From a virus (lineage: Duplodnaviria; Caudoviricetes): DNA of 59,870 nt. Within the stretch, counting starts at the first letter, position 1, and each line of letters starts with the position of its first letter. The notes below the pieces were generated by a model. That model was not told where the DNA came from. It did not search any database and saw nothing but the letters and a program-made list of their open reading frames with translations. Made by a program: the position numbers and the translations under genes. The DNA lies in IMG/VR virus record IMGVR_UViG_3300009050_000003, positions 1-59,870 of that record. One strand, written 5' to 3'. Positions 13,413-58,684 of the stretch are shown here, one piece after another.

Positions 13413-16400
13413 ATGACAACTATTAATGACAGAATTTTTGATCGAATTGTTGATCACATGGGAGATGTTCGCCTTTATGAAGAAGGTGTTCAACTTCAAA
13501 ATCGGCGAATTCTTCAACGGCATCGAAAGCAGTTGAAGGATCTGCTGTCGGAGGATATCAAAGCAGACATTAAACGGGAGATGGCGCGTTTTGAGAAGGA
13601 ACTCCTAGCCCACGGGGTTAGTAGCCTTAAAGAGTTCTCCACCGCACAGCTTGACTTTCATTCAGACAGTCTCTACAAAGAAGTACGTTCTTTTTATAAG
13701 GTTCAAAGACCTAGTACTAAAGAACTTCTGGCAGAGATTACTGGACCCAATATTAAGGGTGCAAAAGACATATCTACTAATATACGGAACATCTCTTCAG
13801 GAGAACTTACTCGTATTCAATCAAAGGTAAAGTATGGTCTTGCGCGTGGAATGTCACAAAAAGATATTATTGCTTCAGTTATGAAAACTACTAATCTAAC
13901 TGAAAATCAAGTTAAAACATTAACTCGTACTGCTATTACTAGTACGCAGTCTGCTGCTTTAAGGAATGTTGCTGCACGTAACAAAGGAATTGTTTCTGGT
14001 TTTATGTTTACAGCTATTCTAGACGCTCGTACAAGCCCTATATGTTCTTATCATAATGGTAAGATTTATGAGGTTGATGACCAGCGTTTTGTTCCCCCAT
14101 TGCACTGGAACTGCCGTTCTTCTATGGTACCAGTTATCAAGTCTAAAGATCAACTTCTTGAGACTGATGATGCAAGACTTAAAAAGCGTATAGTATCCAA
14201 TATGGATCCTCAACAGCTTAACGGCCTTCCACCTGTAACTCTTAGTTTTGGTGAATGGCTAAAAAGACAAACTATGGAAATTCAAGCTAAGATGCTTGGC
14301 TCTGAAGATGCTGCAAACATGTTCAGGCAAGGTAAACTAAAAGCTAGTGAATTCATTACTCCCAAAGGTAAGGCGCTTACAATTCAAGCCTTGCGGAATA
14401 GAGCAGCTAATGCTACTACTGTATTTAAACCTAAACAACAGGTTCGCAGTGAAGGTATTAGAGTTCAAGCAACGACACCTAATCAACTACTTAATAATCC
14501 TAAACACAAAGAAGACTTGCGTCAGCTTTTCTTGCTTGATGCGAGTGACTATAATCAATCTTTGTCTTTAACCGATTATAAAGGTACGTCCCTTGTTGGT
14601 AAACAAGAGTCTAGACGAAGGGTTGGTAATCAGTTTGATGAACGAAACTTTAGCGCAGATCCTATTACAGGTGAAGTGCGTAACAATAATATTTATGATC
14701 CTGATTTTAATCTGTATCAAGAACGTCTTGATTTTATGCGTAATTCTAAACTGCTTTCTTCAGAGCAAAAGAGCTTTATTGAAAATGCAGTAGCAGGTCT
14801 AGATGATAAGATTTCAGTAAATCAACAAACAGTTATGATTGAAAACCTTCGTGTTGTTTTCGAACGTTATGCTAAAGATAAAATGAAGTGGGGCGATCTT
14901 ACTTCTGTTATTCGTGCTGAGAATAGGTTTGCTGTACAGAACGTTTCACGACTTCTAGATACACGTTCTCGGCAACGTGTGGATACCTTCTCTAAGTATC
15001 TAACAGACTCTAAAACAGATATGCCTAAAATTCAGATTATGGGTAAATACTATGATCTTGATCAGCTAAACGAAATGTATCTAAAAGACACTCGTTTTGT
15101 AGACGCTTGGGAAAGTACTGCAGGTGTTAATCTTGCTAGGAAAGCTTTCTTTAAAGGCCGTGCGCCTATTATTAACTATTTTAGGCCAATTCTTGATCAG
15201 CTACCTGATCGTAAGACTTACATCGATCGTTTGTTATTAAGAGATACCTTGCTTTACAAGCGTTATAAACAATTTAAAAGCTTGTTTAAAGACAAAGAAC
15301 CAACTGATGACTGGTGGATTCGTAACACTGCAAGAGGTCGGGAAACTATTCGTAGTATTTTGGATTTAGAGTTCTTGAACCTTCGGAAGAAACCTACTAC
15401 TATTGTTATGAATGACAAAGGAACTAAAGCATTAACTAGCGCAGCTAAACTTGTTGCATCAGGAGACGCTACTGACTATGACACACTTGCTATTAACATC
15501 GGAAAGATGCTTAGTAAGGAGTTTGAAGACTTAATTCCATTTATGAAGAATGACTTAAAATCTTATCACAAAGAGGGATCTAAATTCCTTGACTTTATGA
15601 AAGATCAAGGTCTTATTCGTATTCAATTTCGAGGTAAAACTCGAAGAGGTGTTATTGATGTAGAAACAGGTCGTGCAGGAGGTGCATGGGGTGATACTAT
15701 TAGCCGAGAAGTTACAGTTATCAATAAAGATATGCTTAAGCTTCAAGAGGCAAGTCGCCGTATGACTATTGCTCGTCGTTTAGGAAACGTTTCAGATCGT
15801 GATCGTCTTTATGTTAAGGCAGGTAAGAAAACTTACTTTGATGCTAGAGGTAAAGACACGGGTGTTCCTATTGTGTCTCGTGATAAATTTCCTGATTATG
15901 ATCCTAAACAGATTGACTCTGAAATGGCTAATATGATGAATCATGTGATGAATGTCGAATATAGCGTAGACAAAGAGTTCTTTGGTTTTATGGATGACAT
16001 TGTTAGGTTTAGAGACCCTCGTGGTAACTCTAAATACTACGACAGTATCAATGAGCTGCGGCATGAAATTCTTAACCGTGGTGAAGCAGGTTATGGTCTT
16101 ATGGCTACAGCTAAATATCATGCTATTCGTGGCAAGAATTTTAAGACATATGCCTTTATCGATTCTCGTGGTCGTGTTTATCATCGTGGATATCTGACAC
16201 CGACAGGTGGTGAGCTAGTCCGTCCTTTCCTAAACTCAGGTAAAGCTGTTAATATCGATGCGGCTGCTGTGTATGAACTTCGTACTCAAATTGGTGCTTT
16301 AATAGGTCCAGGTACAGAGGCACTTACTCAAGCTGGACGTCAAGCAATCTTTGGTCGTAATAGAGAGAAGATTCTTGATTTAGGTAATCTGATGATGCAA

Positions 16401-17804
16401 ACAACTCAAAGAGATCGTAGACTTCGTGAGTTTCTTGAACACCCCCTTATTAGAGGCTTAGAAGGTCCAGAAGTACCAAAGATGGCTCGTATGGCACTTG
16501 AGTACGCTCGTATTCATAAGCATGTAGATGGTGATTTTAATAACCTTAAAAAGCTTAACACATACAAAACTCAGCTTATGATTGAGAACGATGCGTCGTC
16601 ATCAGGTGCTCAAATTATTGGATTGTCTACGGGCGATAGGGCTATTTCGGAAGCTTCTAATGTTCTTGCAACTACTCAGAAGAACCGTTTGTATGACCTT
16701 GTTGCTATGGATACTGTTAACGATCCAGAATTTTTGAAAATACCTGCCCTTAGAGATGCTAACCTAACTTGGGAAGATCTTGCTAAAGGTGCTAAGGCGC
16801 AAAACATGGTAAGCTTCTACGGTGCTGGCGATGCAACTAAAACCGCCAACGTAGCAGGTAAGCTGTCTAAAGTTCTTGAAGGTAAAGGTTATGTAACCGT
16901 TACTAAAGCTAATTTAAGTGAACAGCTTAGAATTATTGATGGTAAGATTAAAATTGCTCAAAAGCTTGATGCAGAAACTTCTGTAAAAGAGCTTCAGTCT
17001 TTCAGAGCAGAACTTGTTGATCTTATCAATAACAATGAACCTGCTGGTAGTACGCTTATGAAACAAGCTATTGAAGTTCATCCTGATACTGCTGCTTTTG
17101 TTGAAAAGCTTATGAACTCTCGAAAGGGCATTATTGGCCCTAAAGAGTTTGCAGAAGTATCTCGGATTATGTCTAAGAACCTTGCTGCTCGTGCGCCTGT
17201 TACAGATCAGTTTATTAACTTCTGGAAAGATGTGGCTAAGGCTTATGTAACAGAAACACAAAAGGTTGATATTCCGTGGGTTACATTCGACGGTAAAGTT
17301 ATGATGCAACGGTATAGACCCCGTTTGCAAGAACGTATTGAGTTTACTGACCCTGTTACGGGTCGTAAAGTATCTAACATCTATGAGGCAAAAGCTGAAG
17401 ACGGAAAACTTCTTGGGAAGTCTTCTTTGAATGACGCTCGTATTGGCCTAGGTGTTAATGGAAACCATAGTAACGATGCTGTTATTGTTAGACGATTCCA
17501 CTTGTGGGGACGTAAAAACGGTATTGGTACTGCAACAATTCATGACGCATTCTTCACTAATATTGGAGATGCTATGAAGGCAAAGGACGCTCTTAGAACC
17601 ATCTATGCAGATGCTCTTGGGGGCGATACTATAAGACGCACCTTGCAAGAAATGCGCAAGCAAGGCATGTCTTATAATACTTACTTAAAGCTTCTTGATG
17701 AAGCTAAGAGGAGAGGCTTAATTGACCCTCCAAATAAAATTACACGCCGTGACATTCTAGCTCCTATCGCTGATGGGTTTGACTGGTACGGTATTGGTCC
17801 ATAG
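13413..17804 (+). CDS. MuF (SPP1 gp7-like) minor head protein fused to a T7-like single-subunit RNA polymerase; putative virion RNAP
   Basis: N-terminal MuF motifs FTAILDARTSPIC...PPLHWNCRS (~14000-14125). C-terminal RNAP motifs DSRGRVY (~16161), ENDASSSGAQ (motif A), KAQNMVSFYG (motif B, Kx7YG), NGNHSNDA and TIHDAF (motif C). Located between portal and scaffold. Confidence 0.9.
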   Translation: MTTINDRIFDRIVDHMGDVRLYEEGVQLQNRRILQRHRKQLKDLLSEDIKADIKREMARFEKELLAHGVSSLKEFSTAQLDFHSDSLYKEVRSFYKVQRPSTKELLAEITGPNIKGAKDISTNIRNISSGELTRIQSKVKYGLARGMSQKDIIASVMKTTNLTENQVKTLTRTAITSTQSAALRNVAARNKGIVSGFMFTAILDARTSPICSYHNGKIYEVDDQRFVPPLHWNCRSSMVPVIKSKDQLLETDDARLKKRIVSNMDPQQLNGLPPVTLSFGEWLKRQTMEIQAKMLGSEDAANMFRQGKLKASEFITPKGKALTIQALRNRAANATTVFKPKQQVRSEGIRVQATTPNQLLNNPKHKEDLRQLFLLDASDYNQSLSLTDYKGTSLVGKQESRRRVGNQFDERNFSADPITGEVRNNNIYDPDFNLYQERLDFMRNSKLLSSEQKSFIENAVAGLDDKISVNQQTVMIENLRVVFERYAKDKMKWGDLTSVIRAENRFAVQNVSRLLDTRSRQRVDTFSKYLTDSKTDMPKIQIMGKYYDLDQLNEMYLKDTRFVDAWESTAGVNLARKAFFKGRAPIINYFRPILDQLPDRKTYIDRLLLRDTLLYKRYKQFKSLFKDKEPTDDWWIRNTARGRETIRSILDLEFLNLRKKPTTIVMNDKGTKALTSAAKLVASGDATDYDTLAINIGKMLSKEFEDLIPFMKNDLKSYHKEGSKFLDFMKDQGLIRIQFRGKTRRGVIDVETGRAGGAWGDTISREVTVINKDMLKLQEASRRMTIARRLGNVSDRDRLYVKAGKKTYFDARGKDTGVPIVSRDKFPDYDPKQIDSEMANMMNHVMNVEYSVDKEFFGFMDDIVRFRDPRGNSKYYDSINELRHEILNRGEAGYGLMATAKYHAIRGKNFKTYAFIDSRGRVYHRGYLTPTGGELVRPFLNSGKAVNIDAAAVYELRTQIGALIGPGTEALTQAGRQAIFGRNREKILDLGNLMMQTTQRDRRLREFLEHPLIRGLEGPEVPKMARMALEYARIHKHVDGDFNNLKKLNTYKTQLMIENDASSSGAQIIGLSTGDRAISEASNVLATTQKNRLYDLVAMDTVNDPEFLKIPALRDANLTWEDLAKGAKAQNMVSFYGAGDATKTANVAGKLSKVLEGKGYVTVTKANLSEQLRIIDGKIKIAQKLDAETSVKELQSFRAELVDLINNNEPAGSTLMKQAIEVHPDTAAFVEKLMNSRKGIIGPKEFAEVSRIMSKNLAARAPVTDQFINFWKDVAKAYVTETQKVDIPWVTFDGKVMMQRYRPRLQERIEFTDPVTGRKVSNIYEAKAEDGKLLGKSSLNDARIGLGVNGNHSNDAVIVRRFHLWGRKNGIGTATIHDAFFTNIGDAMKAKDALRTIYADALGGDTIRRTLQEMRKQGMSYNTYLKLLDEAKRRGLIDPPNKITRRDILAPIADGFDWYGIGP

Positions 17805-22826: not shown

Positions 22827-22906
22827 CCCCTAACATCCTTGCCCTATGATGGCATCTCATTACATCGAGATACTGTTGTAGGGCAATTTTATTAAGGAGG
22901 AACACT

Positions 22907-28900: not shown

Positions 28901-29146
28901 CCAATGATGGCAGGTGCTAAAGCTGGTGTAGACTCTGTTCCTGCAATGCTAACTCCTGGCGAAGTCATCTTGAGTACTGATCAAGTTAAAGCACTTGGTA
29001 AAGGCTCTAATGCAGGTAATAGTCAAGTATTTAATTTGAATATTACTGGAGATGTATCTCGTCAAACACGCAAAGAAATCGTCAAGTTGATGCCTCAGAT
29101 TACTCAAGGTGTTAACACCAATAACAAAGAAAATAATAGACGATAA
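22907..29146 (+). CDS. Tape measure protein (2079 aa)
   Basis: Tape-measure N-domain (AIFQLGQGLASGQLRGQELNSVLEQAP), Gly/Ala hydrophobic stretches, and C-terminal FSEGGIV...DSVPAMLTPGE. Confidence 0.92.
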   Translation: MSGVEIRVRSNSQQARQDLARLEKSVGNIDKTVNNVTKSIGRLAVGLGAAFSAQLAIRNINKYTDSLINLENRIALVTGRTEEMTQVLGKLYEISARSRGSIDGAAETFNRFGRSLQGTGASTEQLLQVTEAVQKSIAISGSGAESARAAIFQLGQGLASGQLRGQELNSVLEQAPRLAQAIADSMGQPLGKLRELAEEGKITTDVVFKGLLKQAEAINKEFADLEGTTAQAFEVFGDSVGRVTGEISKTLGFSYLFTDQLNRMSTYLRDNVGQLNSMAFILRGDIITGFRDFSLIAGGVANVLGAYFGRIGDAIYQLILPMRTVSDQLKATLLSPFLEARQEYLKITNKIGDDMADSMMSGLRGKIGNVFRAEGPEEIRAALDDLAMTIDGYGRQWFNFGNQITNFINPAFITIERTLVGLGILDQRLLRFRSGSFEDLNFVMELTNLIIKDLVKNIKALEVWNDLVLGAYIAAQQINRVMGAIKSEISIAVNKIQKTLQSMFTGVKDIAEKNLGAAWKSVKGYLDLIERKFFWLYDEVIANSWWTDTMEQTAGLAQYWLGRAEARVQSFGNTINSVYKTISKRASGFKEALSNLLPSGGGRNILEIEISTSSIKETAVTLVNTAVNFGRTISSGAANMVSDLYKKIKEIAPGIGSYIAFAVTTAVGSAFAPKLFAPLLKLELIGLGAIIANELASNFGPAFISSGFLEDLGTGIGRAAGNFAAAIIENIPMIVQGLVQVVKGFGKGVAEAFGGIPGFLLRTINSIPFFGGDGLIVGLIFGTAGLSIVSKKFRELAFNVIQPALTGIIKMAGVGSGANLFGAGQGLASRILFGGTADPKAVLTRLTFFTVGATALLSGIPDTLGQGIAQLGFAYLTMFGTRGPTAIIQDLQKVANVGGSAFSTIMAGGWGTQLGATAAKAFNGIRSMMTMTSRVGAIESAKMSASYVASFARIRGAGISSLGAVVKRFGRVALIAGAALYALTGTADAASEEMGGLESTISKYSDVGIIGLSILGPMLGGPLMKAVTKVTGFVAKSISGLVSTAVATGARLGGALFTGIMAGVGSLATSIVTAITGAFAAIFSMAGAIVVGAVAAIGLLGVWIFGEGDGFFDKLGNAYDSVRKFFGMADRRTRDARNELEGLFDFDQIGDIKINLAAELANVDLSSISDDDLDRLMRVSREANRIFEEANTTLMNEGELSRAETRNVQRAVYAVRDELRRAPAVPETERGRNLGDSLKTILGGIEFIGGRTSQSLNPFGDVLTESERAALTRAQSQADEGRLSDAISTILTSEMRPMLEESDQGRALVELMGRLMGVLDAGALDRMSQEEFVTFSESVSDFSRLINQFGRGVGFNEVGAGVQAFGRGGIGNDTGLAGELAGILQTVARENARQILLEQRQAKLTNAEEILTKVADFGVDIEPEELARRFTNAQLDAFIEAGNNLITNMDIFDQAPETLAGYTQEYLDRLNHNAEMYANVLNHIIEQSVPQETTDEIQSRLEGLQSQLDSVGISGSLAFDPMVASVAALSEEAIYLGGEYERMQGKIKSISRLQRQLLEDESLSAQQRRDITVEIGRQRQSLETMVELNNLAYRIEADRVGLIEDAMSSVDNAMPLERILALDVSTINKIVAASAAVQTLSLQLQSIGASGADVDVGIRRTLERRLQESQEYLNSVMGGFSGNDDKSGKTETFLEKLSSGLSSAGFSASIQEIGALSQRQIDQLTIAVGRYNDAQKALNNSAQSESVIRANALRTLDEQRERMAEILASGTILGIQKALEGMGSQLDIASLVGLTPERFQFAVENSLRIAELRKNILDTAGTDLALAREMNLELERRMQLEQGMTDTARSSTDAIAESIKKNLGEVIRGAQTLGEGIIGVLDTVTDRIIDTVLNSFVDAMFQASGMKDMFTNFFAGLFQSGQSMGQKLGQTVGQSITGSLEGSMTGGGWMSNIMGSVGGLFKNIFGFLGGMGGGGGMFSSLFGLSFGSFLGFSEGGIVPMMAGAKAGVDSVPAMLTPGEVILSTDQVKALGKGSNAGNSQVFNLNITGDVSRQTRKEIVKLMPQITQGVNTNNKENNRR

Positions 29147-29157
29147 ACAACTTTTTG

Positions 29158-29183
29158 GGTCGCCCTTCGGGGCGGCCTTTTTT
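29158..29183 (+). terminator. Intrinsic terminator ending the late operon
   Basis: GGTCGCCC-TTCG-GGGCGGCC-TTTTTT. Confidence 0.85.
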
Positions 29184-29226
29184 ACCAAAACAGTCAGCTA
29201 ATTTTGCCCAAAAAAAGCCCAAAAAA

Positions 29227-29253
29227 AAGTGAGAAAATTAACGCATCTATAAT
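29227..29253 (+). promoter_or_regulatory. Early promoter-like motif, copy 1
   Basis: AAGTGAGAAAA-TTAAC-GCATCTATAAT; same blocks and spacing as at 31495. Confidence 0.65.
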
Positions 29254-29282
29254 AGAAGAAATCCAAATAGAGGAGAAACCAA

Positions 29283-29456
29283 ATGGAACTTCTGATCGTC
29301 ATTATCGCTATCGCTGGCTGGGCTGCTATCGGTAAAATGACTTACGACATGGCTAATTACCAAGACCGCAACCCGTGGGTCTGGGCAATTCTTGCTGTGT
29401 TGTTTGGGCCACTAGTAATGGCCTATGTATTTTACAACGGTAAATACAAATACTAA
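29283..29456 (+). CDS. Small 2-TM membrane protein (57 aa), first early gene, not in the ORF track
   Basis: GAGGAG RBS; MELLIVIIAIAGWAAIGKMTYDMANYQDRNPWVWAILAVLFGPLVMAYVFYNGKYKY. Confidence 0.7.
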   Translation: MELLIVIIAIAGWAAIGKMTYDMANYQDRNPWVWAILAVLFGPLVMAYVFYNGKYKY

Positions 29457-29524
29457 AAGCTTTGGGGTGTGCTTTAAACACCCTAATCAACCTTCATCCA
29501 AGTGGAATCCAAGAGGAATATAAA

Positions 29525-29758
29525 ATGAAGACTATCACAAACATCATCAAAATCGTAATCGTAATTGCTCTGTTTGCTATTCTTGCAGTATTGGCGAATA
29601 TCGTTGTTAGCGGTTTGACCGCTTTGTTCGGTATCGTTGCAATCATTGCATCTGGCATCTGGACCGTAATCTTTTACGTTACTATGACCTATATCTCGCT
29701 TAAGATTGTAGGTGCAATTGTAGAGTTTGCTATTATCAAGAAGATATTCGCAAAATAA
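29525..29758 (+). CDS. Membrane protein
   Basis: GAGGA RBS; almost entirely hydrophobic. Confidence 0.7.
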   Translation: MKTITNIIKIVIVIALFAILAVLANIVVSGLTALFGIVAIIASGIWTVIFYVTMTYISLKIVGAIVEFAIIKKIFAK

Positions 29759-29776
29759 TAGCTGACCTTAAAGCCC
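29757..29776 (+). promoter_or_regulatory. Variant of the phage RNAP promoter motif
   Basis: AATAGCTGACCTTAAAGCCC; 17 nt identical to 38092-38108. Confidence 0.5.
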
Positions 29777-29824
29777 TAGAGACTCCCTCCCTGTCTTTAG
29801 GGCTAAACTTAAAGGAAACTTTAA

Positions 29825-30106
29825 ATGACAATACTAGGCATCTTCTTAGCCGTTCTAATTGGTCTATTGATTAGATCAATCATCTCTAAAAAGTTATGGG
29901 GAAACAAAATCTATCGAACACCTTGGTGGGTAATTGTTTCTTTCTTTATTCTTTCTGGAACCTATATGCCAAGTGCTATATTTGGTTTAATGGGTTTGTT
30001 TATGTACGACATGATAAGCTATGCTGTACCTAGCGACAATGCATCTAGAAAGATAATTAAAGGTATCCATGAACATCTAACAAAAGGAATCAAAGCCAAT
30101 GCTTAA
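29825..30106 (+). CDS. Membrane protein
   Basis: Three hydrophobic segments; AAGGA RBS. Confidence 0.7.
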   Translation: MTILGIFLAVLIGLLIRSIISKKLWGNKIYRTPWWVIVSFFILSGTYMPSAIFGLMGLFMYDMISYAVPSDNASRKIIKGIHEHLTKGIKANA

Positions 30107-30305
30107 GAATATTGCAAGTGGGTTTGGAAAGGGTATCGGTGAGTCTTTTAACATTGTTAAAGACGTAACCAATGTAATATCTGAATATCTCCGTAGTGAG
30201 AAAGGCCAACACTTTATGGCTAAACACTTTGAAGTAATTTATGAAGAAACTCAACCTTATGAAGAAGTGTTGATGGAAGCTCTAAACGAAATGAAAGGAA
30301 AGTAA
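30099..30305 (+). CDS. Hypothetical protein
   Basis: ORF with RBS in the early region. Confidence 0.6.
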   Translation: MLKNIASGFGKGIGESFNIVKDVTNVISEYLRSEKGQHFMAKHFEVIYEETQPYEEVLMEALNEMKGK

Positions 30306-30306
30306 A

Positions 30307-30528
30307 ATGCTACGTGGTGCTGTTGATAAGAACATCATGCATAATCTTTGCAATCAAGCAGAGGTGGCACAAATTAACCGTAATAATCCGTTCTATGTTG
30401 GAACTGTAAAAGGTTATAAATTCTACGAATGCCCAATCTATGGGGATGAGCGCCCGTTGCTCGTTAAAGACAAACTTGGTCGCTATGGTTATAGCTACTG
30501 GTGTGACCTTCCTGAAGGAGAAATCTAA
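30307..30528 (+). CDS. Hypothetical protein
   Basis: ORF with RBS; FYECPIYGDERPLL. Confidence 0.6.
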   Translation: MLRGAVDKNIMHNLCNQAEVAQINRNNPFYVGTVKGYKFYECPIYGDERPLLVKDKLGRYGYSYWCDLPEGEI

Positions 30529-30653
30529 TGAACTACGAAGACCAACTGCAGTATGAGAATGATGATTACGAGTATTACAGATGGCTTACGAGTGTAAATC
30601 CGTTTTTTGTTGTAGACGCTGAATATCAAATCAAAGGAATGGAGATTCTCTAA
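30528..30653 (+). CDS. Small acidic hypothetical protein (41 aa)
   Basis: AAGGAG RBS; TAATG overlaps with neighbouring genes at both ends. Confidence 0.5.
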   Translation: MNYEDQLQYENDDYEYYRWLTSVNPFFVVDAEYQIKGMEIL

Positions 30654-31036
30654 TGATGACTGCTGCTATGTGTCTTGCATTAAATATGTTTTTTGAAGCA
30701 AGAAATGAGTCATTGATTGGGCAAGTAATGGTAGCTGAAGTAACTCTAAATAGAGTAGTAGATGCGAGATTCCCTGATACAGTCTGTGAAGTCGTCTGGC
30801 AAGATAAACAATTTAGCTGGACACATGACGGTAAAACAGATAATCCTAATAAACTGCCCCATGTTGATCGTGAGGCTTGGAGATGGATAAAGGTACTAGC
30901 CGATATACTTCTCGAAGAACCAGAGTACCTAACTAAAACAGGTGCTTTGTACTATCATGCCGAGTATGTTAACCCGTACTGGACAGACCACTATGAACGT
31001 GTTGCTGTTGAAGGCACACATATCTTTTACAAGTAA
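30653..31036 (+). CDS. Cell wall hydrolase (SleB/Hydrolase_2)
   Basis: CLALNMFFEARNE, VTLNRV, FPDTVCEVVWQ..QFSW, GALYYHA.YV.PYW and HIFYK motifs. Confidence 0.9.
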   Translation: MMTAAMCLALNMFFEARNESLIGQVMVAEVTLNRVVDARFPDTVCEVVWQDKQFSWTHDGKTDNPNKLPHVDREAWRWIKVLADILLEEPEYLTKTGALYYHAEYVNPYWTDHYERVAVEGTHIFYK

Positions 31037-31047
31037 GGACAAATCAA

Positions 31048-31500
31048 ATGAAAAACATCGTAATCGCCTTGGCTTCAATTTTCTTTGCTACCTCTGCTAT
31101 TGCAGGTCAAGAGTATGAATGTAAGAAAAGTTTTCTTGGATGCTATACAACTTATGTAGGAACTAAAACTTCTGCGGATGTAATTGAATACGTTAAAGAT
31201 TCAGAGGAGGCTGTTCAAGAAGTTACATCAACTTACAAGCTGGAAGAAGTAATCTATCAACCAAAAGAAGGTATTCTTGTTATCAAAACCACTAAGGAAA
31301 ACTGGATGCCAAATTTTAGTGAAGTAAAAGCTATGTTTCGAGATCGAAACCTATACTTGAAAACTATCGTATTTACCTGGCCAGGTTCTTATGATGTACG
31401 TAAAGTAATGAACTTCGATGACAATCATAAAGGCAGAGTACGTTACTTAGCCCTTAAGGAAATCAAAGCACCATCTGAAAATATTCTCACAAAGAAGTGA
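31048..31500 (+). CDS. Exported hypothetical protein
   Basis: Signal-peptide-like MKNIVIALASIFFATSAIA. Confidence 0.65.
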   Translation: MKNIVIALASIFFATSAIAGQEYECKKSFLGCYTTYVGTKTSADVIEYVKDSEEAVQEVTSTYKLEEVIYQPKEGILVIKTTKENWMPNFSEVKAMFRDRNLYLKTIVFTWPGSYDVRKVMNFDDNHKGRVRYLALKEIKAPSENILTKK

Positions 31501-31521
31501 GAAAAACAAAGCATCTATAAT
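31495..31521 (+). promoter_or_regulatory. Early promoter-like motif, copy 2
   Basis: AAGTGAGAAAA-ACAAA-GCATCTATAAT. Confidence 0.65.
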
Positions 31522-31548
31522 GAACAGATCAAAATAGGAGATGATATC

Positions 31549-31704
31549 ATGTTCAATGCAAACGTAAAATTCTGGAACTTTGACGCTAACAAAATGGAAG
31601 TTGTTTCTGCTTCTGGAACCACTCGTGAAAAGGCTATTTCTAATTGCTTTCAGAAAGCAAAGAAAATGGGCTTGTCGTATAATGACATGATTTCGGTGGA
31701 GTAA
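31549..31704 (+). CDS. Small hypothetical protein (51 aa), not in the ORF track
   Basis: AGGAG RBS; MFNANVKFWNFDANKMEVVSASG... Confidence 0.6.
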   Translation: MFNANVKFWNFDANKMEVVSASGTTREKAISNCFQKAKKMGLSYNDMISVE

Positions 31705-31705
31705 A

Positions 31706-31879
31706 TTGTTGACTAAGTTCACAAAAGAGTACCTCGAAGAGATTAGCTTTTCTAACCTTGTAAAAGCAATCGATGCAAAATGGGGTCATACTTATATTGA
31801 CCCACCACTAACACTTGAAGATGAAATCAAGGCTATTCTTGACGAATTCGATCCTAAACTCAACAGCCAACATAAATAA
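31706..31879 (+). CDS. Small hypothetical protein
   Basis: TTG start after GGAG; open frame fills the gap between genes. Confidence 0.4.
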   Translation: MLTKFTKEYLEEISFSNLVKAIDAKWGHTYIDPPLTLEDEIKAILDEFDPKLNSQHK

Positions 31880-31890
31880 GGAGATCTCTT

Positions 31891-32127
31891 ATGGCTCGTA
31901 ACATTAAAGCACTAAAGACTGGTTTCAACTACGAACTGACTCAAGGTCGTCCTTGGAGCAGCCGAAACAAAGCTTACAATCATGGCGATCGTATTGCTAT
32001 GGTTGGACAAATTCTTGCTGGCACATACACAATTGCTGAAGCAGCTGATGAAATGGGTGTTGTTAAACAGACTATTAAAAATTGGCTTGCAACAGCCGAT
32101 AAGGATAATCCCCGCCTAATGGGATAA
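31891..32127 (+). CDS. Helix-turn-helix DNA-binding protein
   Basis: TIAEAADEMGVVKQTIKNWL. Confidence 0.8.
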   Translation: MARNIKALKTGFNYELTQGRPWSSRNKAYNHGDRIAMVGQILAGTYTIAEAADEMGVVKQTIKNWLATADKDNPRLMG

Positions 32128-32131
32128 CACA

Positions 32132-32184
32132 GTTCTCCTCGCCCCACTTGGGGGCGGGGAACCCTTCCTTCTTTTTTTTTTTTT
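32132..32184 (+). terminator. Intrinsic terminator upstream of the RNAP gene
   Basis: GC hairpin CTCGCCCC-ACTT-GGGGGCGGGG, followed by a 13-T run. Confidence 0.7.
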
Positions 32185-32320
32185 CAGTATAGGAGATATA
32201 TTATACTAGGTCTGTTAGCAATGATTTATCTGATGATATTCAAAGGTAACAAGACTCTTAACTAAGTTCTGAAGTAAATGGGGTACGCATTGTACTATGC
32301 CCATAATGAAAGGAAGCTAA

Positions 32321-34492
32321 ATGTCTGAAGCCACAGTACTTGATAGATTAGTCGAAGATCTAGCGTATCGAATGAGCGTATTAGATAAACGTCAATCAGC
32401 AAGTTACTTGAATACACTAAGTCCGAGAGATATTATTGAGTTCTCATATACACATGTTCTCAAAGGTCTTGAAAGAAAAGCTACACTAGTGGAAGTAGCT
32501 GCTAGTATAGGTCGTAGACTTCGTCAGAAGCTTCGAATGAAACAAGACAGTATTCTTGATGTTCAAGGTGGTTGGTATGTTCTTATTTCATATATTGAGA
32601 CAGGAATTATCGGCTATCGAAAAAAGCATGTTTACAAAAATGGCAAAAAGTCTAAGCATCTTACGTTTCAGCTTTATGCAAGAGATTGGTCAGCCATTAA
32701 AGACATGATGGACCTAATTGATAACGAAAAGACAGACTTATTTCCAGTTAATACTCCTCCAAAACCGTGGACTAACAAATCTATTCACGAGGAAACTGGA
32801 ATTAGTATCATTAAGAAAGGTGACGAGAGTGCTTTAAAACACATGGAAAACTCAGACACAAGTTATATTGTAGATGTGCTTAATAAGCTATCTAATACAG
32901 CTTGGCGTATTAACGAAAGAGTTTTTGAAGTATACAAAGCTTGTATGACAATGAAAGAAAACCCGTTCAAATTCTCTAAAGAGATCGATCCTGTAAAACG
33001 GGCTTCCTTGATTATTGAAACAGAGGCTATCCAGCGGCTTGCAGAGAAGAACCTGAATAAGCCGTTTTATCATCTGTATAACCTTGACTTCCGAGGCCGT
33101 ATTTACCCTAACACTGCCTTCTTACACGAGCAGTCTAGTGACAATGCGAAAGGTATCCTTTTACTAGAGGAGCCTGTGCCATTAGGTCAGGACGGTTATT
33201 ACTGGTTGTCAGTCCATACTTCAAACATGTGGGGTAATGATAAAGTATCTTTAGACGATCGTGCAGAGTGGGTTCAAGAAAACTTAGACGAAATTCTAAG
33301 TTATGCAAATGACCCTCTTAACAATTTAGGGTGGATGAAAGCAGATAAACCATTTTGCTTTCTTGCTTGTTGTTGTGAAATTGATATGATTAGTAACTGG
33401 CATGGTGATGGTTTTAACACTGAAGACTTTCCAAGCTGCTTGCCAATCTACATCGATGGGTCTAACAACGGTGTTCAACATCTTGTAGCAATGTCTAAAG
33501 ATGATGAAGTTGCACCACTTGTAAACTTAACACCTAGTGACCTTCCTGGTGATGTATATATGTTTATTGCAGAACATGTATGGAAGCGTATCGAGCAAAT
33601 GTATAATGAGCTTGATAAAGACACCATCAATAAGTTTGACGATGTGTTTAACACAGCACTCAAGCTGCAACGAGAGTATGAGAATGCTCCTGATAAGTCT
33701 GAAAGAAAGAAACTTGCTTTTCAGGCAGTACAGACTTATCGAAATCATAACAGAGATCTTCGTGAGAAACTTTTTCCTGTATATTGGCATAATATTCAGG
33801 ATAAAAAAGTACAACGAAAAACTGTTAAACGCAATGTAATGACACTTGGCTACGGTGGCACAGCCTACGGCATGGGTCAACAAGTTAACGAAGATACAAG
33901 GGATATCAATGATTACTTGAGAGACAAAGAGCATTTGTGGGGTAATATGCTAGGTAAACTAGTATATGAAACCTGCTATGAAGAGCTTAAAGGACCAGCC
34001 CGTATGCTAAGGCTGTTCCAGACTCTTGCAGACAGAGCCAATGAGAAGGGGGTTTATCTCTCCTATATCACCCCTATCACAAACTTCCCTGTTGTGCAGG
34101 CGTACAAGACTGCGGCTACTAAGCGTACAGAACTTAAGTATGGTGACGACATCATGAAAGTTCGTATTCAAGTTTGGGAAGACTGTACTGTAAACGAGAG
34201 TAAACAAAGAACAGGTGCAGCACCAAATATTGTACATAGTCTTGACGCTGTTCATTTAACTATGGTTGTACATGATGCACCTTTTACTGTAACTGTTGTT
34301 CATGATTCTTTCGGATGTCACGCAGGAAACATGAACTATATGTTTCATCATGTTCGCAACAAGTTTGTAGAACTTTATGAATCTAACCCTCTAGAATGTA
34401 TTCTAGAACAACTTGAGTCCACAGACCTTATTCCAGAGAAAGGAAAACTTAATGTCAACTCTGTATACCTCTCAGACTTTGCGTTCGCTTAA
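32321..34492 (+). CDS. T7-like single-subunit DNA-directed RNA polymerase (723 aa)
   Basis: DFRGRIY, DGSNNGVQH (motif A), RKTVKRNVMTLGYG (motif B), APNIVHSLD, VHDSFG (motif C) and C-terminal SDFAFA. Confidence 0.95.
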   Translation: MSEATVLDRLVEDLAYRMSVLDKRQSASYLNTLSPRDIIEFSYTHVLKGLERKATLVEVAASIGRRLRQKLRMKQDSILDVQGGWYVLISYIETGIIGYRKKHVYKNGKKSKHLTFQLYARDWSAIKDMMDLIDNEKTDLFPVNTPPKPWTNKSIHEETGISIIKKGDESALKHMENSDTSYIVDVLNKLSNTAWRINERVFEVYKACMTMKENPFKFSKEIDPVKRASLIIETEAIQRLAEKNLNKPFYHLYNLDFRGRIYPNTAFLHEQSSDNAKGILLLEEPVPLGQDGYYWLSVHTSNMWGNDKVSLDDRAEWVQENLDEILSYANDPLNNLGWMKADKPFCFLACCCEIDMISNWHGDGFNTEDFPSCLPIYIDGSNNGVQHLVAMSKDDEVAPLVNLTPSDLPGDVYMFIAEHVWKRIEQMYNELDKDTINKFDDVFNTALKLQREYENAPDKSERKKLAFQAVQTYRNHNRDLREKLFPVYWHNIQDKKVQRKTVKRNVMTLGYGGTAYGMGQQVNEDTRDINDYLRDKEHLWGNMLGKLVYETCYEELKGPARMLRLFQTLADRANEKGVYLSYITPITNFPVVQAYKTAATKRTELKYGDDIMKVRIQVWEDCTVNESKQRTGAAPNIVHSLDAVHLTMVVHDAPFTVTVVHDSFGCHAGNMNYMFHHVRNKFVELYESNPLECILEQLESTDLIPEKGKLNVNSVYLSDFAFA

Positions 34493-34688
34493 AGAAGGGG
34501 ATACCCTTCATATTAAGTCTATAAATGATTATGGTGAGTCTACTATGGTCATTAACGAAATTTTTGAAGGAGGCTTCGGTGGCACTGTAAGATTTCACGA
34601 ACTAGGTGATACTGCTAATGACGGTGAGTACGGCGAACTGTATGAAGAAGACTTCCACCTTATCTACAATATTGATTACGATAGTTAA
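34452..34688 (+). CDS. Hypothetical protein
   Basis: AAGGA RBS before ATG 34452. Confidence 0.55.
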   Translation: MSTLYTSQTLRSLKEGDTLHIKSINDYGESTMVINEIFEGGFGGTVRFHELGDTANDGEYGELYEEDFHLIYNIDYDS

Positions 34689-34691
34689 ACG

Positions 34692-34737
34692 ATACCTGAC
34701 CTTAAAGATCTACTGTCAATACCTGACCTTAAAGATC
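34692..34737 (+). promoter_or_regulatory. Tandem phage RNAP promoter-like repeats (middle class)
   Basis: ATACCTGACCTTAAAGATC twice (34692 and 34719), directly upstream of the SSB gene. Confidence 0.8.
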
Positions 34738-34782
34738 AAACACTACTAACAAATTTACAAACAAACCAAGAGGAAATATAAC

Positions 34783-35316
34783 ATGGCTATTTTGAAAAAC
34801 GTTGAACTGTTCTACGCTAAACTGGACCCTAAGCGCCCTAACGCTACTTTCGACAAAGAGAACCCTACATGGGAAGTGCAAATTCGTACCCGTGATAAAG
34901 CACAAGCAAAACAGTGGAAAGAACTGAACATCAATGTAAAGCCTGACGAAGACGACAAAGGTATGTTCTACAAAGCAACCTTGAAGAAGAAATCTAAGAA
35001 ACGTGACGGTGAGCCAATGGCTCCAGTTAACATTGTCGCAGGAGACCTGTCCTCAATTGATCCTAATACACTTGGCAATGGCTCTAAAGGCCACGTACGC
35101 ATTTACCAATACGAGTATAATGTAGCTGGCCGTAAGGGTATTGCAAGTATGTTGATGGGCGTCCAAGTAACTGTATTGAACGAGTATCAAGCTAAACCCC
35201 GTGAAGACGACTTTGAAATGACTGAATTTGAAGTTAAGAAAGTTGCAGACAATCAAGAAGTTGATGAAGATCAATTTGTAGCAAACGATGATCTTGACGA
35301 CGAAATTAACTTCTAA
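34783..35316 (+). CDS. ssb: Single-stranded DNA-binding protein (T7 gp2.5-like)
   Basis: YAKL..P, LGNGSKG and GVQV motifs; acidic C-terminal tail ending in Phe. Confidence 0.8.
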   Translation: MAILKNVELFYAKLDPKRPNATFDKENPTWEVQIRTRDKAQAKQWKELNINVKPDEDDKGMFYKATLKKKSKKRDGEPMAPVNIVAGDLSSIDPNTLGNGSKGHVRIYQYEYNVAGRKGIASMLMGVQVTVLNEYQAKPREDDFEMTEFEVKKVADNQEVDEDQFVANDDLDDEINF

Positions 35317-35322
35317 TAATAA

Positions 35323-35355
35323 ACTCCTGAGCATGAGTATAAACTGCTCTTTTTT
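35323..35355 (+). other. Mini H-type RNA pseudoknot, copy 2, followed by a T-tract
   Basis: ACTC-CT-GAGCA-T-GAGT-ATAAAC-TGCTC-TTTTTT. Confidence 0.55.
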
Positions 35356-35385
35356 ACGAAATCGGTCAGCTATTAGGAAAAGACT

Positions 35386-35823
35386 ATGAAAGAACATGTA
35401 TACCTTGCAGGACCAATGGAAGACTGCACAAAAGAACATATGACATACTGGCGTGTAACAGCATGGCAAATGTTAGATATGGCGGGTGTAAAAGCTCTAG
35501 ACCCTACACGCCGTGTATCATTTCATGATCAACTACAAGAACACTTGCAAGACGTTACAAAGACCATGAACACCTGTAAGCGTATCTTTAAGCAAGACCT
35601 ACATGACATTGCATCAAGCCGTGTTGTGTTAGCAGATGTACGGCGTTCTTCTGGGCGCGGTACAGGCACTTCTATGGAATTGATGTTTGCTCATATGAAG
35701 AATAAAATCATCATTCTATGGGCTGATGAAGGTGATCTTATTCATCCTTTCTATGAAGCAATGGCGACAGAAAAACACTACAGCTTAGAGGATGCTGTTT
35801 ATGCAGCACTGGAGTACTACTAA
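35386..35823 (+). CDS. Nucleoside 2'-deoxyribosyltransferase / dNMP hydrolase-like protein
   Basis: VYLAGPM, DL..IASSRVVLA and GTSMELMFA motifs. Confidence 0.8.
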   Translation: MKEHVYLAGPMEDCTKEHMTYWRVTAWQMLDMAGVKALDPTRRVSFHDQLQEHLQDVTKTMNTCKRIFKQDLHDIASSRVVLADVRRSSGRGTGTSMELMFAHMKNKIIILWADEGDLIHPFYEAMATEKHYSLEDAVYAALEYY

Positions 35824-36029
35824 TGGGCTTTTCACCTAGACTCTATGAAATTCACTTGTGGCTCCAAGATGACGATGGTGATTACTGGTGGGAAATTTAC
35901 GATGTAGCTTTTTTAGACTTTCAAAAAGCATTAGTTACCTACAACAAGTATAAAGATGAAGGTTATGATGTTCGTATTGTAGAAACCAAGTGCGTAAGAG
36001 CTTGGGAAGACGAAAAGGAATGGAAATGA
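35823..36029 (+). CDS. Hypothetical protein
   Basis: Translationally coupled ORF. Confidence 0.6.
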   Translation: MGFSPRLYEIHLWLQDDDGDYWWEIYDVAFLDFQKALVTYNKYKDEGYDVRIVETKCVRAWEDEKEWK

Positions 36030-36226
36030 GAAACTTTGACCATCAACAAGTACTACTAAAGATTGACGATGTACATGACTTGTCAATCGTATCGCTAAAC
36101 GGTAAACCTGAAATAGCTATCATGGGTCCAGAAGGAGTTTACCATGATAGTGTAGAACCGCTAAATAACGTAAGACAACTAGTAAACTACTTGGCACGTT
36201 ACTTTGGAGGAAAAACAAATGGCTAA
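36026..36226 (+). CDS. Hypothetical protein
   Basis: ATGA overlap with the previous stop codon. Confidence 0.55.
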   Translation: MRNFDHQQVLLKIDDVHDLSIVSLNGKPEIAIMGPEGVYHDSVEPLNNVRQLVNYLARYFGGKTNG

Positions 36227-36608
36227 ATGGTATTCAGAAGAAATGCAAATGTTTCATGTAGCAAACGCAGGAGACAAGTATTTTCTTTATCATTGGTTCT
36301 ATACAGGTTGGGCTAAAGACTGGAATCCTCGTGATCTTGACTGGGGCTACATAGGTGTTGCGCCTTATGAAAATGTTCCTGAACGCTACAGAATTGAGTC
36401 AATGGAGTGTGCAACAGGTAAGCGTCTTAAGAAACGTAAGGTTATTGAAATGCTTGACAAGTTTCGATCACAGAGTAAAATAGGCTTTAGAATTATAGGC
36501 CAAAACTTAACTCGGAAAGAAGCCTTACGCATTGAGCATATGCTTCGTCCTGATAATTGGACTAGTAAAGTAGATCGTCGTGTTTGGAATGAAGTAGCAG
36601 GAGGTTAA
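36219..36608 (+). CDS. GIY-YIG-like protein
   Basis: FLYHW...GYIGV...ERY...EALRIE...WNEVAGG. Confidence 0.5.
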   Translation: MAKWYSEEMQMFHVANAGDKYFLYHWFYTGWAKDWNPRDLDWGYIGVAPYENVPERYRIESMECATGKRLKKRKVIEMLDKFRSQSKIGFRIIGQNLTRKEALRIEHMLRPDNWTSKVDRRVWNEVAGG

Positions 36609-36611
36609 GCT

Positions 36612-37178
36612 ATGTATGATCGTGAAATGAAGCTAATTCGTGAGCATCTTATAAAAACTGGTTCACAAGGTATTGTAGACGTATTTTCTACAGTAATTGC
36701 CACAATCAGAACACCTTTTAAAAACATTGTTCCTTTATCAGAAGATATTCGGGATAAGGGCTTGCAGTCAAAAGCACTGTGGGGTCACAAGAAAGATAGT
36801 TATCAGGGCGTAGTAGAGGCTAAGGACGAGCTTTATACAATGCTAGTAATTAACAAAGCAGACGAGAAGGTTGCACTCGAAAGAGTCCTTCAGATCAAAG
36901 GTTTAGGCTTAGCTAAAGCAAGCTTTGGACTTCAAATGCTAGGCTACAATCTAGCTTGTCTAGATACTCATAACTTAAAGAAACTTGGATATTCCTCTAG
37001 CTACTTTAATCGTAAAGATAAGGTTGAAGAGTATATCAAAGTTGTACAACGAAAAGGAACAGAATACTGGTGGAATAGCTGGTGTAATTTAATCCCTGAT
37101 ACTTCTGCCAATAAATCAACCTTTAGAAACGGTGATGAAGTATCGTATGAACATACAAAAGCAATAAGAGGTTACTAG
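36612..37178 (+). CDS. HhH-GPD superfamily DNA glycosylase-like protein
   Basis: HhH motif LQIKGLGLAKASFGLQMLG followed by CLDTHNL (catalytic Asp position). Confidence 0.6.
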   Translation: MYDREMKLIREHLIKTGSQGIVDVFSTVIATIRTPFKNIVPLSEDIRDKGLQSKALWGHKKDSYQGVVEAKDELYTMLVINKADEKVALERVLQIKGLGLAKASFGLQMLGYNLACLDTHNLKKLGYSSSYFNRKDKVEEYIKVVQRKGTEYWWNSWCNLIPDTSANKSTFRNGDEVSYEHTKAIRGY

Positions 37179-37179
37179 T

Positions 37180-37542
37180 ATGAAAAGAGTAGCAGTATAT
37201 TGGAACTTACACAAAGACGTATACTCAATACAGTCCCGTGAAACAGCAGATTACGGAAAAGTAATCGGTCATGCTGAGTCAGTAGCAATAGCTTTGCCAA
37301 AGTTTGTCGTTCGACAAGCTGGACGTCAACAAGTATTGAAAGAACAAAAGAAGAATGTTCATGCGTTTGTTGTAGGTTATCTTACAGAGAATCTTGTGTT
37401 TAATGAAGAAGGTAAACGTATAACGTATAATCCTTATAAATACAATAGTTTTGTAATAGCTGACACTAAAGAAGAGATACGAGATGGTTCAGCCGCAAGG
37501 CTGTCTATGCACGAAGGTAAACCCTTAATAGAGGTTTGGTAA
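37180..37542 (+). CDS. Conserved phage hypothetical protein
   Basis: VYWNLHK, FVVRQAGRQ.V....KNVHAFVVG and TYNPY motifs. Confidence 0.75.
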   Translation: MKRVAVYWNLHKDVYSIQSRETADYGKVIGHAESVAIALPKFVVRQAGRQQVLKEQKKNVHAFVVGYLTENLVFNEEGKRITYNPYKYNSFVIADTKEEIRDGSAARLSMHEGKPLIEVW

Positions 37543-37709
37543 TGGCAACAGTCCAAGTAATCGTAACGTATGAGTTTGAAGTAGAAGACTCTGACTATAA
37601 AACTATGTATGATCATGCAGTATCAACCCCTTGGGAGTTAAAAGAAGCTATTCAAGCTGATGTGCATATCTATGATGATAACTGGAATGAGGTAACTGAA
37701 GATGAGTGA
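37542..37709 (+). CDS. Small acidic hypothetical protein (55 aa)
   Basis: TAATG overlap; GAGG RBS. Confidence 0.5.
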   Translation: MATVQVIVTYEFEVEDSDYKTMYDHAVSTPWELKEAIQADVHIYDDNWNEVTEDE

Positions 37710-37959: not shown

Positions 37960-38137
37960 AGATCTTAAGAATGACTGGGAATTGCTAGACGACTACTACG
38001 AGGAACGTGCAGCTATACTGGAGTATGATGCAGGGTATTCCCGATATGAAGCTGAAAACTTAGCTGCACAAATGTACGGCTTTGATAACAAAGCTGACCT
38101 TAAAGCCCATATCCAAAAATTAAAAGCAGGAGCGTAA
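37952..38137 (+). CDS. Hypothetical protein
   Basis: GAGGAG RBS; YEERAAILEYDAG.SR.EAE motif. Confidence 0.65.
   Translation: MLKDLKNDWELLDDYYEERAAILEYDAGYSRYEAENLAAQMYGFDNKADLKAHIQKLKAGA
38092..38108 (+). promoter_or_regulatory. Variant phage promoter motif inside a gene end
   Basis: AGCTGACCTTAAAGCCC, identical to 29760-29776. Confidence 0.4.
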
Positions 38138-38138
38138 C

Positions 38139-42932: not shown

Positions 42933-43187
42933 ATGTACACTGTTGAAATGGAAGACAAAGAAACTATTGTAACAACACTTGATGAAACAGGTAAATTCGA
43001 AGATGTAACCTTGTTTTTTGACGACAGCAGTGTTGTCTATATTAGGCAATTCAACGAGAAGAGGAATAAGTACGAGTTGATTGAAATGAGCTATCAACAG
43101 CTACTTGACCTTAAAGCTGCACTAGACTCTCCTGTTGGTGCATTCTATATTATTACTCATGATCTTAAAGAAAAAGGTGTGAAATAA
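42933..43187 (+). CDS. Hypothetical protein
   Basis: ORF with RBS. Confidence 0.65.
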   Translation: MYTVEMEDKETIVTTLDETGKFEDVTLFFDDSSVVYIRQFNEKRNKYELIEMSYQQLLDLKAALDSPVGAFYIITHDLKEKGVK

Positions 43188-44201: not shown

Positions 44202-44637
44202 ATGGGATAGGATGTATATGAGGATGGCTTTTATTGCTGCCTCAGAAAGTCATGCAAGGAAAAGAAAAGTTGGCGCAATAGCAGTAAAGGAAAACAATGT
44301 TATCGGAATCGGTATTAACGGCACTCCTTCTGGTTGGCATTCTAATAAGTGTGAAGATTTAGACAACAAGACGTATCCATACGTTCTTCATGCTGAAACG
44401 AATATGATCAGCAAAGTAGCAAAATCAAGTATCTCCAGTCTTGGGGCTACTTGTTACACAACAACAGCTCCTTGTTTAGATTGTGCAAAATCAATCTATC
44501 AAGCAGGGTTTTCTAAAGTAGTCTATCACACAAACTACAAGAACACTGAAGGTATCGATTTCCTGAGAATGATGAGTGTAGAAGTCATTGAAATAGATTA
44601 CGAAAAAATACCTGACCTTAAAGACCAAAACCCATAG
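44194..44637 (+). CDS. dCMP deaminase
   Basis: KVGAI, NGTPSG, HAETN and PCLDC motifs. Confidence 0.9.
   Translation: MDKWDRMYMRMAFIAASESHARKRKVGAIAVKENNVIGIGINGTPSGWHSNKCEDLDNKTYPYVLHAETNMISKVAKSSISSLGATCYTTTAPCLDCAKSIYQAGFSKVVYHTNYKNTEGIDFLRMMSVEVIEIDYEKIPDLKDQNP
44607..44624 (+). promoter_or_regulatory. Phage RNAP promoter-like repeat (middle class)
   Basis: AATACCTGACCTTAAAGA, upstream of the exonuclease gene. Confidence 0.75.
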
Positions 44638-55304: not shown

Positions 55305-55323
55305 AATACCTGACCTTTAAGAT
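55305..55323 (+). promoter_or_regulatory. Phage RNAP promoter-like repeat (late class), upstream of the structured RNA and terminase
   Basis: AATACCTGACCTTTAAGAT. Confidence 0.78.
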
Positions 55324-58672: not shown

Positions 58673-58684
58673 TAGGGGGTAACT

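Follow-up and report, generated by a model that had tools for sequence, protein, structure and literature searches.

A probable relay of two T7-type RNA polymerases, one fused to a MuF head protein, in a siphovirus akin to Naomviridae

Several phages begin infection with a virion RNA polymerase (RNAP) and then pass transcription to a second polymerase of their own, and such relays are known from N4, the phiKZ/AR9 group, crAss-like phages and P23-45. In N4 (Schitoviridae), the virion RNAP gp50 is followed by RNAPII (gp15/gp16) and then by host RNAP; the early promoters are DNA hairpins, RNAPII consists of two subunits, and the late genes use the host polymerase. The jumbo phages PBS2 and AR9, which have deoxyuridine (dU) in their DNA, carry both virion and non-virion multisubunit RNAPs. 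Here we analysed the window, i.e., the whole stretch of 59,870 nt in IMG/VR record IMGVR_UViG_3300009050_000003 (positions 1 to 59,870), which encodes two T7-type RNAPs, one fused to a MuF head protein and one free. Judging from sequences and structure models, we consider it fairly probable that the two work in relay, the fused enzyme first and the free enzyme second. The logic of such a relay is known (N4, P23-45); what sets this one apart is that both enzymes are T7-type and that the first is carried by the MuF head protein of a siphovirus. The two genes are the following.

13413..17804, + strand: MuF (SPP1 gp7-type) minor head protein with a divergent T7-type RNAP module, 1463 aa (by Pfam, profiles and fold)
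32321..34492, + strand: free T7-type RNAP, 723 aa, ATG start, one chain (by Pfam, T7 alignment and model)

The relay of the N4 virion polymerase is dealt with in PMC13434306 and PMC13492108, and the abstract of PMC10770324 describes for Thermus phage P23-45 a virion RNAP, fused to the tape measure protein, that transcribes pre-early genes including the gene of the second phage polymerase. The window would resemble N4 in that an ejected polymerase of the T7 superfamily starts infection and expresses a smaller second polymerase of T7 type. However, N4 is a podovirus whose polymerase lies inside a protein of ~3,500 aa, whereas the module in the window sits on MuF. With P23-45 the window shares the long tail and the fusion of a polymerase to a structural protein of the virion, but the P23-45 enzymes, according to the same abstract, are akin to cellular multisubunit-type RNAPs and are carried by the tape measure protein, whereas those of the window are single-subunit T7-type enzymes and the carrier is the portal-associated MuF protein. 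A preliminary description of this DNA had seen in it a parallel to N4 made of different parts in a long-tailed phage, and the comparison indirectly supports this, as the logic is shared while carrier and sequence differ. MuF fusions and N4-like polymerases are treated separately in the relevant passages of Iyer et al. 2017 (PMC5512222), and neither a MuF-polymerase fusion nor two T7-type polymerases in one siphovirus were found described in the literature searched.

The window is a linear record of a long-tailed marine phage, ~90% complete, with all of its long open reading frames (ORFs) on the + strand. The best phage matches of both polymerases are in the roseophages DSS3_VP1 and DSS3_PM1 (Naomviridae, Noahvirus), to which the free polymerase is 55.7% and the MuF-fused protein 61.6% identical, both over the full length. 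The two roseophages encode both polymerase genes in the same gene order as the window, and all genes lie on one strand in the roseophages and the window alike. Judged by core genes and synteny, the window phage is akin to Naomviridae at the family level. It nevertheless belongs to another lineage, with a 59.9-kb record of 39% G+C, whereas the DSS3_VP1 record has 75 kb. According to PMC8323127, DSS3_VP1 and DSS3_PM1 are siphoviruses in which dU replaces deoxythymidine (dT). The DSS3_VP1 record labels the fused protein 'head morphogenesis' only, and RNA polymerase is unmentioned in the main texts of the Naomviridae papers PMC8323127, PMC12697855 and PMC12669031. Among more distant phages, the Pelagibacter siphophages Kolga and Aegir have the free polymerase in common (31%) and match the other protein only in its MuF part, and EBPR siphovirus 1 carries the entire fused protein, split into three pieces. 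Hundreds of metagenomic proteins are related to the free enzyme; they are 706-755 aa long and align at 97-100% coverage. For the fused protein, 120 of 397 relatives (E<=0.001) were listed; the full-length ones among these are mostly 1400-1600 aa, and most of them carry both Pfam families. An exhaustive search with the fused polymerase module gave 134 clusters at 50% identity.

The free enzyme matches the Pfam family PF00940 (RNA_pol) at E 4e-84 (283.4 bits, cut-off 22) and aligns with T7 RNAP chains at E 7.6e-62, from residue 140 (T7 residue 268) through the C-terminal FAFA, with 29% identity to T7 RNAP. Its DFRGR (256), DGSNNGVQH (with D379), KRNVMTLGYG (with K503 and Y511) and VHDSF (with H661-D662) fall on the T7 motifs T/DxxGR, A, B and C, and FAFA stands at 720. 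Across 31 relatives, D379, H661-D662, K503, Y511 and DFRGR show no variation. An AlphaFold model based on the alignment of these 31 relatives reached a predicted local distance difference test score (pLDDT) of 89.5, and its top matches in PDB are T7 RNAP (3e2e, E 2.5e-32; promoter complex 1cez, template modelling score 0.80). The model contains a specificity-loop hairpin with strands 596-607 and 610-624. The preliminary description had taken this gene for a 723-aa RNAP with canonical T7 motifs, which is borne out by the Pfam match, the T7 alignment and the T7-like predicted fold. It was also right in the motif differences that it quoted between the two enzymes, and in calling the free enzyme ~160 aa shorter than T7 RNAP (723 versus 883 aa). 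The free enzyme has DGSNNGVQH (379) and KRNVMTLGYG (503), the fused enzyme ENDASSSGAQ (1058) and KAQNMVSFYG (1128). Almost all of this deficit lies N-terminal of PPKPW, where the free enzyme has ~139 residues and T7 RNAP ~267. In the model, this N-terminus comprises five helices and a long beta-hairpin at 97-120; a match of the family profile to T7 residues 98-150, in the N-terminal domain that binds the promoter by an AT-rich recognition loop and an intercalating hairpin, was not significant.

The ORF of the fused enzyme follows the portal gene (11697-13265) and precedes the capsid genes. Its product matches MuF (PF04233) at residues 134-238 (E 2.3e-14) and PF00940 at 1045-1425 (E 2e-6, 27.3 bits, barely over the cut-off of 22), and the polymerase module spans residues ~690-1463. 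Across an alignment of 34 relatives with identities as low as 22%, D1060, K1128, Y1136, G1137, D1355 and D1378 are invariant, and R921 (T/DxxGR), H1352 and H1377 are almost so. The family profile matched T7 RNAP (E 5.4e-10, in collinear pieces) and had a weak match to N4 RNAPII; the N4 virion RNAP chain gave no match to it at E<=1 and was absent among the Foldseek rows listed for the structure model. This model (residues 341-1463) has a pLDDT of 82.4 and finds T7 RNAP as its best PDB match (E 8e-20). Furthermore, hhalign of the fused against the free family gave a probability of 97.3% over 627 columns, placing free residues 57-716 onto fused residues ~690-1449. BLASTP between the free and the fused polymerase returned no significant match and phmmer of the fused protein against PDB returned none; plain sequence searches miss the link, and only profiles and folds connect the two polymerases. 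Another ORF considered as the fused polymerase, that of 2079 aa at 22907-29146, was ruled out as the tape measure protein, which has no polymerase match. It had been asked earlier whether one of the enzymes is catalytically dead; the catalytic residues are intact and conserved in both families, and neither polymerase therefore looks dead. The fused enzyme is a candidate virion polymerase, whose packaging and ejection are suggested by the MuF fusion and by its place in the head operon.

Two classes of putative promoters were recognized. Class II has the form AAGTGAGAAAA-N5-GCATCTATAAT and occurs at 2 sites in the window, both between the tape-measure and polymerase genes, while class I is AATACCTGACCTTWAAG. 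The sites are listed below, together with the terminator that precedes the first class II site; the helix-turn-helix gene is abbreviated HTH.

29157..29186, + strand: hairpin and T run closing the head/tail operon after the tape measure gene (sequence)
29229..29253, + strand: class II (early) candidate 1, GTGAGAAAATTAACGCATCTATAAT, immediately 3' of the tape-measure terminator (bipartite motif)
31497..31521, + strand: class II (early) candidate 2, ahead of the o51, o57 and HTH genes (bipartite motif)
34691-34707 and 34718-34734, + strand: class I candidate, a tandem pair ~200 nt past the polymerase stop codon (motif)
29757..29773, + strand: class I candidate, AATAGCTGACCTTAAAG, within the early module (motif)
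38089..38105, + strand: class I candidate, ahead of the nucleotide kinase and DNA polymerase genes (motif)
43100..43116, + strand: class I-like site, its 12-nt core mismatched at one position, ahead of the MazG gene (motif)
44607..44623, + strand: class I candidate, ahead of the 5'-3' exonuclease gene (motif)
55305..55321, + strand: class I candidate, ahead of the terminase and tail block (motif)
11138-11154 and 11261-11277, + strand: two class I candidates, ahead of the portal/MuF-RNAP/capsid/tape-measure operon (motif)

A search of 40 sources for class II in its strict bipartite form gave 42 sites, spread over 16 sources, namely the window, DSS3_VP1 and 14 of the 38 related IMG/VR loci. All 42 lie on the + strand, at a distance of 0.8-6.6 kb upstream from the polymerase gene, and none is downstream of it. 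The motif is almost identical in DSS3_VP1 and the window, and in DSS3_VP1, too, it stands directly 3' of the tape measure gene. A variant, AAAAAGTGGGG...CCCTCTATAAYGAAGAA, occupies the same place in all seven of the more distant loci inspected by eye, one locus having both forms. We give weight to class II because the match between the two window copies is longer than the core and because the motif is present in relatives. Its GTGAGA box lies 13 nt from TATAAT, so that it does not have sigma-70 geometry; no TTGACA-like box is found at 16-18 nt. A sigma-70 scan of 22000-41000 returned 45 sites versus 44.9 expected, and the class II sites are not among them. Unlike the hairpin promoters of N4, class II consists of two linear boxes, and no hairpin lies within the motif, hairpins occurring only downstream of TATAAT in some relatives. 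There, a palindrome, GATACnnnnGTATC, comes right after TATAAT in many relatives (L005, L006, L007, L021 and L040), both window copies being without it, and it would give early RNAs a hairpin at the 5' end.

For class I, eight exact copies and one copy with a single mismatch of the 12-nt core were found, all on the + strand, versus 0.96 expected by chance. T7 promoters were aligned by their annotated start sites and the window sites were placed with G as +1. In this register, class I resembles the 17-nt promoters of T7 (Autographiviridae), with AATAC at -16 to -12, an A/T-rich run preceding the G, and initiation at G if aligned so. The layout also recalls T7, in which the polymerase gene closes the early module and tandem promoters (phi1.1A and phi1.1B) follow gene 1, and the earlier claim that the free polymerase ends the early region agrees with the promoter map. 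In contrast to T7, the window has no sigma-70-type early promoters in the scan, has a long tail, and has a second polymerase in the head operon. N4 differs as well, in that the second enzyme of the window is one 723-aa chain and class I sites precede late genes too. Class I varies by lineage. In relatives ~70-75% identical it reads CTGACGTTAAAG at the same place 3' of the polymerase gene, and in DSS3_VP1 it reads ATAGGGTGCGTTAAAG, a related motif whose centre is not the same as in the window; 11 copies of it stand in the first 50 kb of DSS3_VP1, and the interval from the tape measure gene to the polymerase gene has none. The de novo repeat search for class I motifs of related loci was noisy.

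We tentatively assign class I to the free polymerase because class I resembles T7 promoters and the free enzyme is T7-like, and class II would then be read by the fused enzyme. In 29 of 30 rows of the free family, conservation over the stretch that aligns with the T7 specificity loop is lower than over the protein as a whole, and in one row it is equal. In 23 of 33 rows of the fused family, conservation over the loop-equivalent stretch is higher than over the protein as a whole. As a correlation only, this contrast would fit the variability of class I and the near constancy of class II.

According to the proposed relay, the MuF-fused enzyme would be expressed late together with the head genes, dock in the capsid via MuF and be delivered with the DNA. 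It would then initiate at the bipartite class II sites past the tape-measure terminator and transcribe an early module of 3 kb, and read-through of a hairpin and T run would reach the gene of the 723-aa polymerase. The free polymerase would in turn recognize the T7-like 17-nt class I sites, two of them directly after its own gene, and so serve nucleotide metabolism, replication, terminase and tail genes as well as the head operon, which would supply the fused polymerase for the next generation. In this wiring, class II sites precede the polymerase gene, and class I sites precede the head operon that includes the fused enzyme. The relay is probably real and functional. The cascade suggested in the preliminary description is indirectly supported with regard to the two enzymes, whose catalytic residues are conserved, and to the two suitably wired promoter classes, with the qualification that the polymerase gene would be reached only by read-through. 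This passage would cross two elements in the leader of the polymerase gene.

32136..32184, + strand: terminator-like element that separates the HTH and polymerase genes, made up of a GC hairpin (32136-32160) and then T13 (32172-32184) (10 related loci)
32278..32304, + strand: bulged hairpin of 5 bp + 4 bp with a 4-nt 3' bulge, 16 nt ahead of the polymerase ATG (compensating changes)

The core of the GC hairpin was estimated at -21 kcal/mol, and the layout is the same in the window and in 10 of 10 related loci inspected. The leader (32128-32320) has a family-wide order, in which the GC hairpin and T13 are followed by a ribosome-binding site with a tiny hydrophobic ORF and then by the bulged hairpin. 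This ORF has ~21-26 aa in relatives; in the window, reading it requires a start at ATA/ATT near 32206 or at ATG 32223. The stems of the bulged hairpin show compensating changes among relatives. It was found with a hand-set hairpin search, but 8-9 of 9 pairs are often attained by shuffled sequences as well, which makes the count weak; automatic consensus folding 5' of the polymerase ATG gave no structure because loop lengths vary. The leader could combine an attenuator with a site for processing or for control of translation, and the hairpin and T run may meter expression of the polymerase gene. T7 has an RNase III site ahead of gene 1, at a place matching this leader.

Several observations weigh against the relay. 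The terminator-like hairpin and T run part the last class II site from the polymerase gene, and no promoter-like motif was seen between the T run and that gene, which is why read-through has to be assumed. One class I site (29757-29773) lies within the early module. Class II carries a perfect TATAAT that could serve host sigma-70 holoenzyme. In the window alone, its 11-nt core has three matches versus 1.55 expected, which is not above chance, and the loci with class II include near-duplicates (e.g., L005/L012 and L006/L019). On the enzyme side, the C-terminus of the fused enzyme is without FAFA, and the whole protein to which its loop was compared contains a poorly conserved linker, which favours the result on loop conservation; moreover, the loop contrast is correlative.

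Two other explanations are conceivable. In T7 style, host sigma-70 RNAP could read the class II TATAAT, with the conserved upstream box as an operator or activator site and with the fused module doing something else, but we regard this as unlikely. TATAAT is perfect or nearly so in every class II copy, with an A-rich stretch upstream; however, no -35-like hexamer stands at 16-18 nt, and the sites are unlisted by the sigma-70 scan. T7 does have the host promoters A1-A3 ahead of gene 1, and the HTH-like protein of the early module could bind the conserved box. Against this, ~20 further positions are fixed across phages with polymerases only ~50-56% identical, as is typical of promoters of single-subunit polymerases and not of sigma-70 promoters. 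A host-driven start would also leave a catalytically conserved polymerase of the head operon without a role, and the dU in place of dT in the cultured relatives (PMC8323127) alters every T of the -10 box.

Alternatively, the free enzyme might read both classes, perhaps switched by the HTH-like or the 57-aa protein of the early module, while the fused module primes replication, pulls or anchors the DNA end at ejection, or decays. We consider this very improbable, even though the hhalign alignment, in covering free residues 57-716, indicates the same short architecture in both enzymes, both motif classes finish in an A/T-rich stretch followed by G or A, and the order of the o57, HTH and polymerase genes is conserved. 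The polymerase gene stands 3' of class II sites and is without a class I site past the hairpin and T run; something else must therefore start synthesis of the free enzyme. Decay agrees poorly with catalytic residues that are invariant across 34 relatives, and a module without a transcriptional role agrees poorly with a fused family of 134 clusters. Hence the relay, in which the fused enzyme would read class II and the free enzyme class I, remains the reading that we favour.

The early module, ~3 kb in length, encodes small membrane proteins, a cell-wall hydrolase, 57-aa and HTH-like proteins, and the polymerase. Two of these genes, and the first gene past the tandem class I sites, are the following.

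31706..31879, + strand: 57-aa early gene with the core ISFSNLVKAIDxKWxHTY (29 of 39 related loci)
31891..32127, + strand: 78-aa HTH-like gene, directly upstream of the polymerase gene (13 of 39 loci)
34783..35316, + strand: first gene past the tandem class I sites, possible phage single-stranded DNA (ssDNA)-binding protein (37 of 39 related loci)

In 28 loci, the distance from the 57-aa gene to the polymerase gene downstream is 0.5-1 kb, and in one (L033) it is 5.3 kb; the 57-aa protein has no family match. The HTH-like gene was found in the 13 loci at E<=1e-3, always just 5' of the polymerase gene. The protein at 31891-32127 had been named an HTH protein before; Pfam HTH matches to it do exist, but they are sub-threshold (E ~5e-4). 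What had been called the SSB is probably the product of 34783-35316, for which language-model neighbours with phage ssDNA-binding families speak, while PF00436 is absent from the record. The short N-terminus of the free enzyme had earlier been supposed to need a cofactor, such as the HTH protein or the SSB. On this point, the linkage of o57 and the HTH gene to the polymerase gene is no more than suggestive; nothing seen requires a cofactor, because class I keeps the T7-like AATAC at -16 to -12. The cell-wall hydrolase is of SleB type (30653-31036; PF07486, E 1.9e-23), belongs to the presumed early module and is kept in 26 of 39 related loci. A separate lysis pair, a holin (10222-10614) and an M15 peptidase (10602-11138), rules out that the early module is the lysis cassette.

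Elsewhere in the window, a gene for a SegE-type GIY-YIG homing endonuclease (45344-45832, E 9.8e-30) stands between the exonuclease and primase-helicase genes, and a ClpP-family protease gene (51179-51790, E 1.3e-28) lies 3' of the ribonucleotide reductase genes, distant from the capsid genes. The record starts (3-506) and stops (58685-59869) within ORFs. The first ORF (3-506) contains 30-nt tandem repeats rich in Thr, Tyr and Asn, and the start of the last one (58682-58715) resembles the repeat unit; the window ends probably mark an assembly break in a repetitive, tail-fibre-like gene. For the genome ends of the cultured relatives, nothing was found in the main text of PMC8323127.

Nucleotide-pool genes of the window include those for a dCMP-deaminase-family protein (44194-44637), MazG (43187-43543), a nucleotide kinase (38139-38837) and a nucleoside 2-deoxyribosyltransferase-like protein (35386-35823). 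The Dcd homologue is 36% identical to the dC-nucleotide deaminase of DSS3_VP1 (E 2e-20). Because a Dcd homologue, a MazG protein and a nucleotide kinase are encoded, uracil DNA is plausible in the window phage, the roles of enzymes of the Dcd, MazG and kinase types being taken from PMC12697855. The jumbo phages PBS2 and AR9 would then be comparable as uracil-DNA phages that bring and make their own polymerases, dU in the window being suggested by kinship and the Dcd homologue, but their multisubunit enzymes are unrelated and their genomes are those of giant myoviruses. We tentatively extend this to the whole Naomviridae-like group, with more doubt than confidence. Its phages may never use host RNAP and may all have uracil DNA, both promoter classes having evolved to be read in the dU form by the two phage enzymes; the MuF-borne enzyme would leave the capsid with the DNA and fire the family-wide bipartite promoter, and the leader hairpins would meter the second enzyme.

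Each of the known relays has been informative on how phages escape host control. For this window in itself, the gain is modest, as the free polymerase is already annotated as such in relatives. The polymerase pair is, however, present in hundreds of metagenomic relatives, and the cultured, harmless pair of DSS3_VP1 on Ruegeria pomeroyi makes the relay directly testable. If the relay is true, it would provide two new compact polymerase-promoter pairs, one with a highly conserved 25-nt promoter and one T7-like and lineage-specific. It might also explain how uracil-DNA phages are transcribed, and independence from the host polymerase would, if the DNA does contain uracil, parallel that of the dU jumbo phages. 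On the wider reading for the whole group, it would be a third independent relay from a virion polymerase to the phage's own polymerase, built from single-subunit enzymes only, and it would sit in abundant marine phages that are under-sampled by standard metagenomes.

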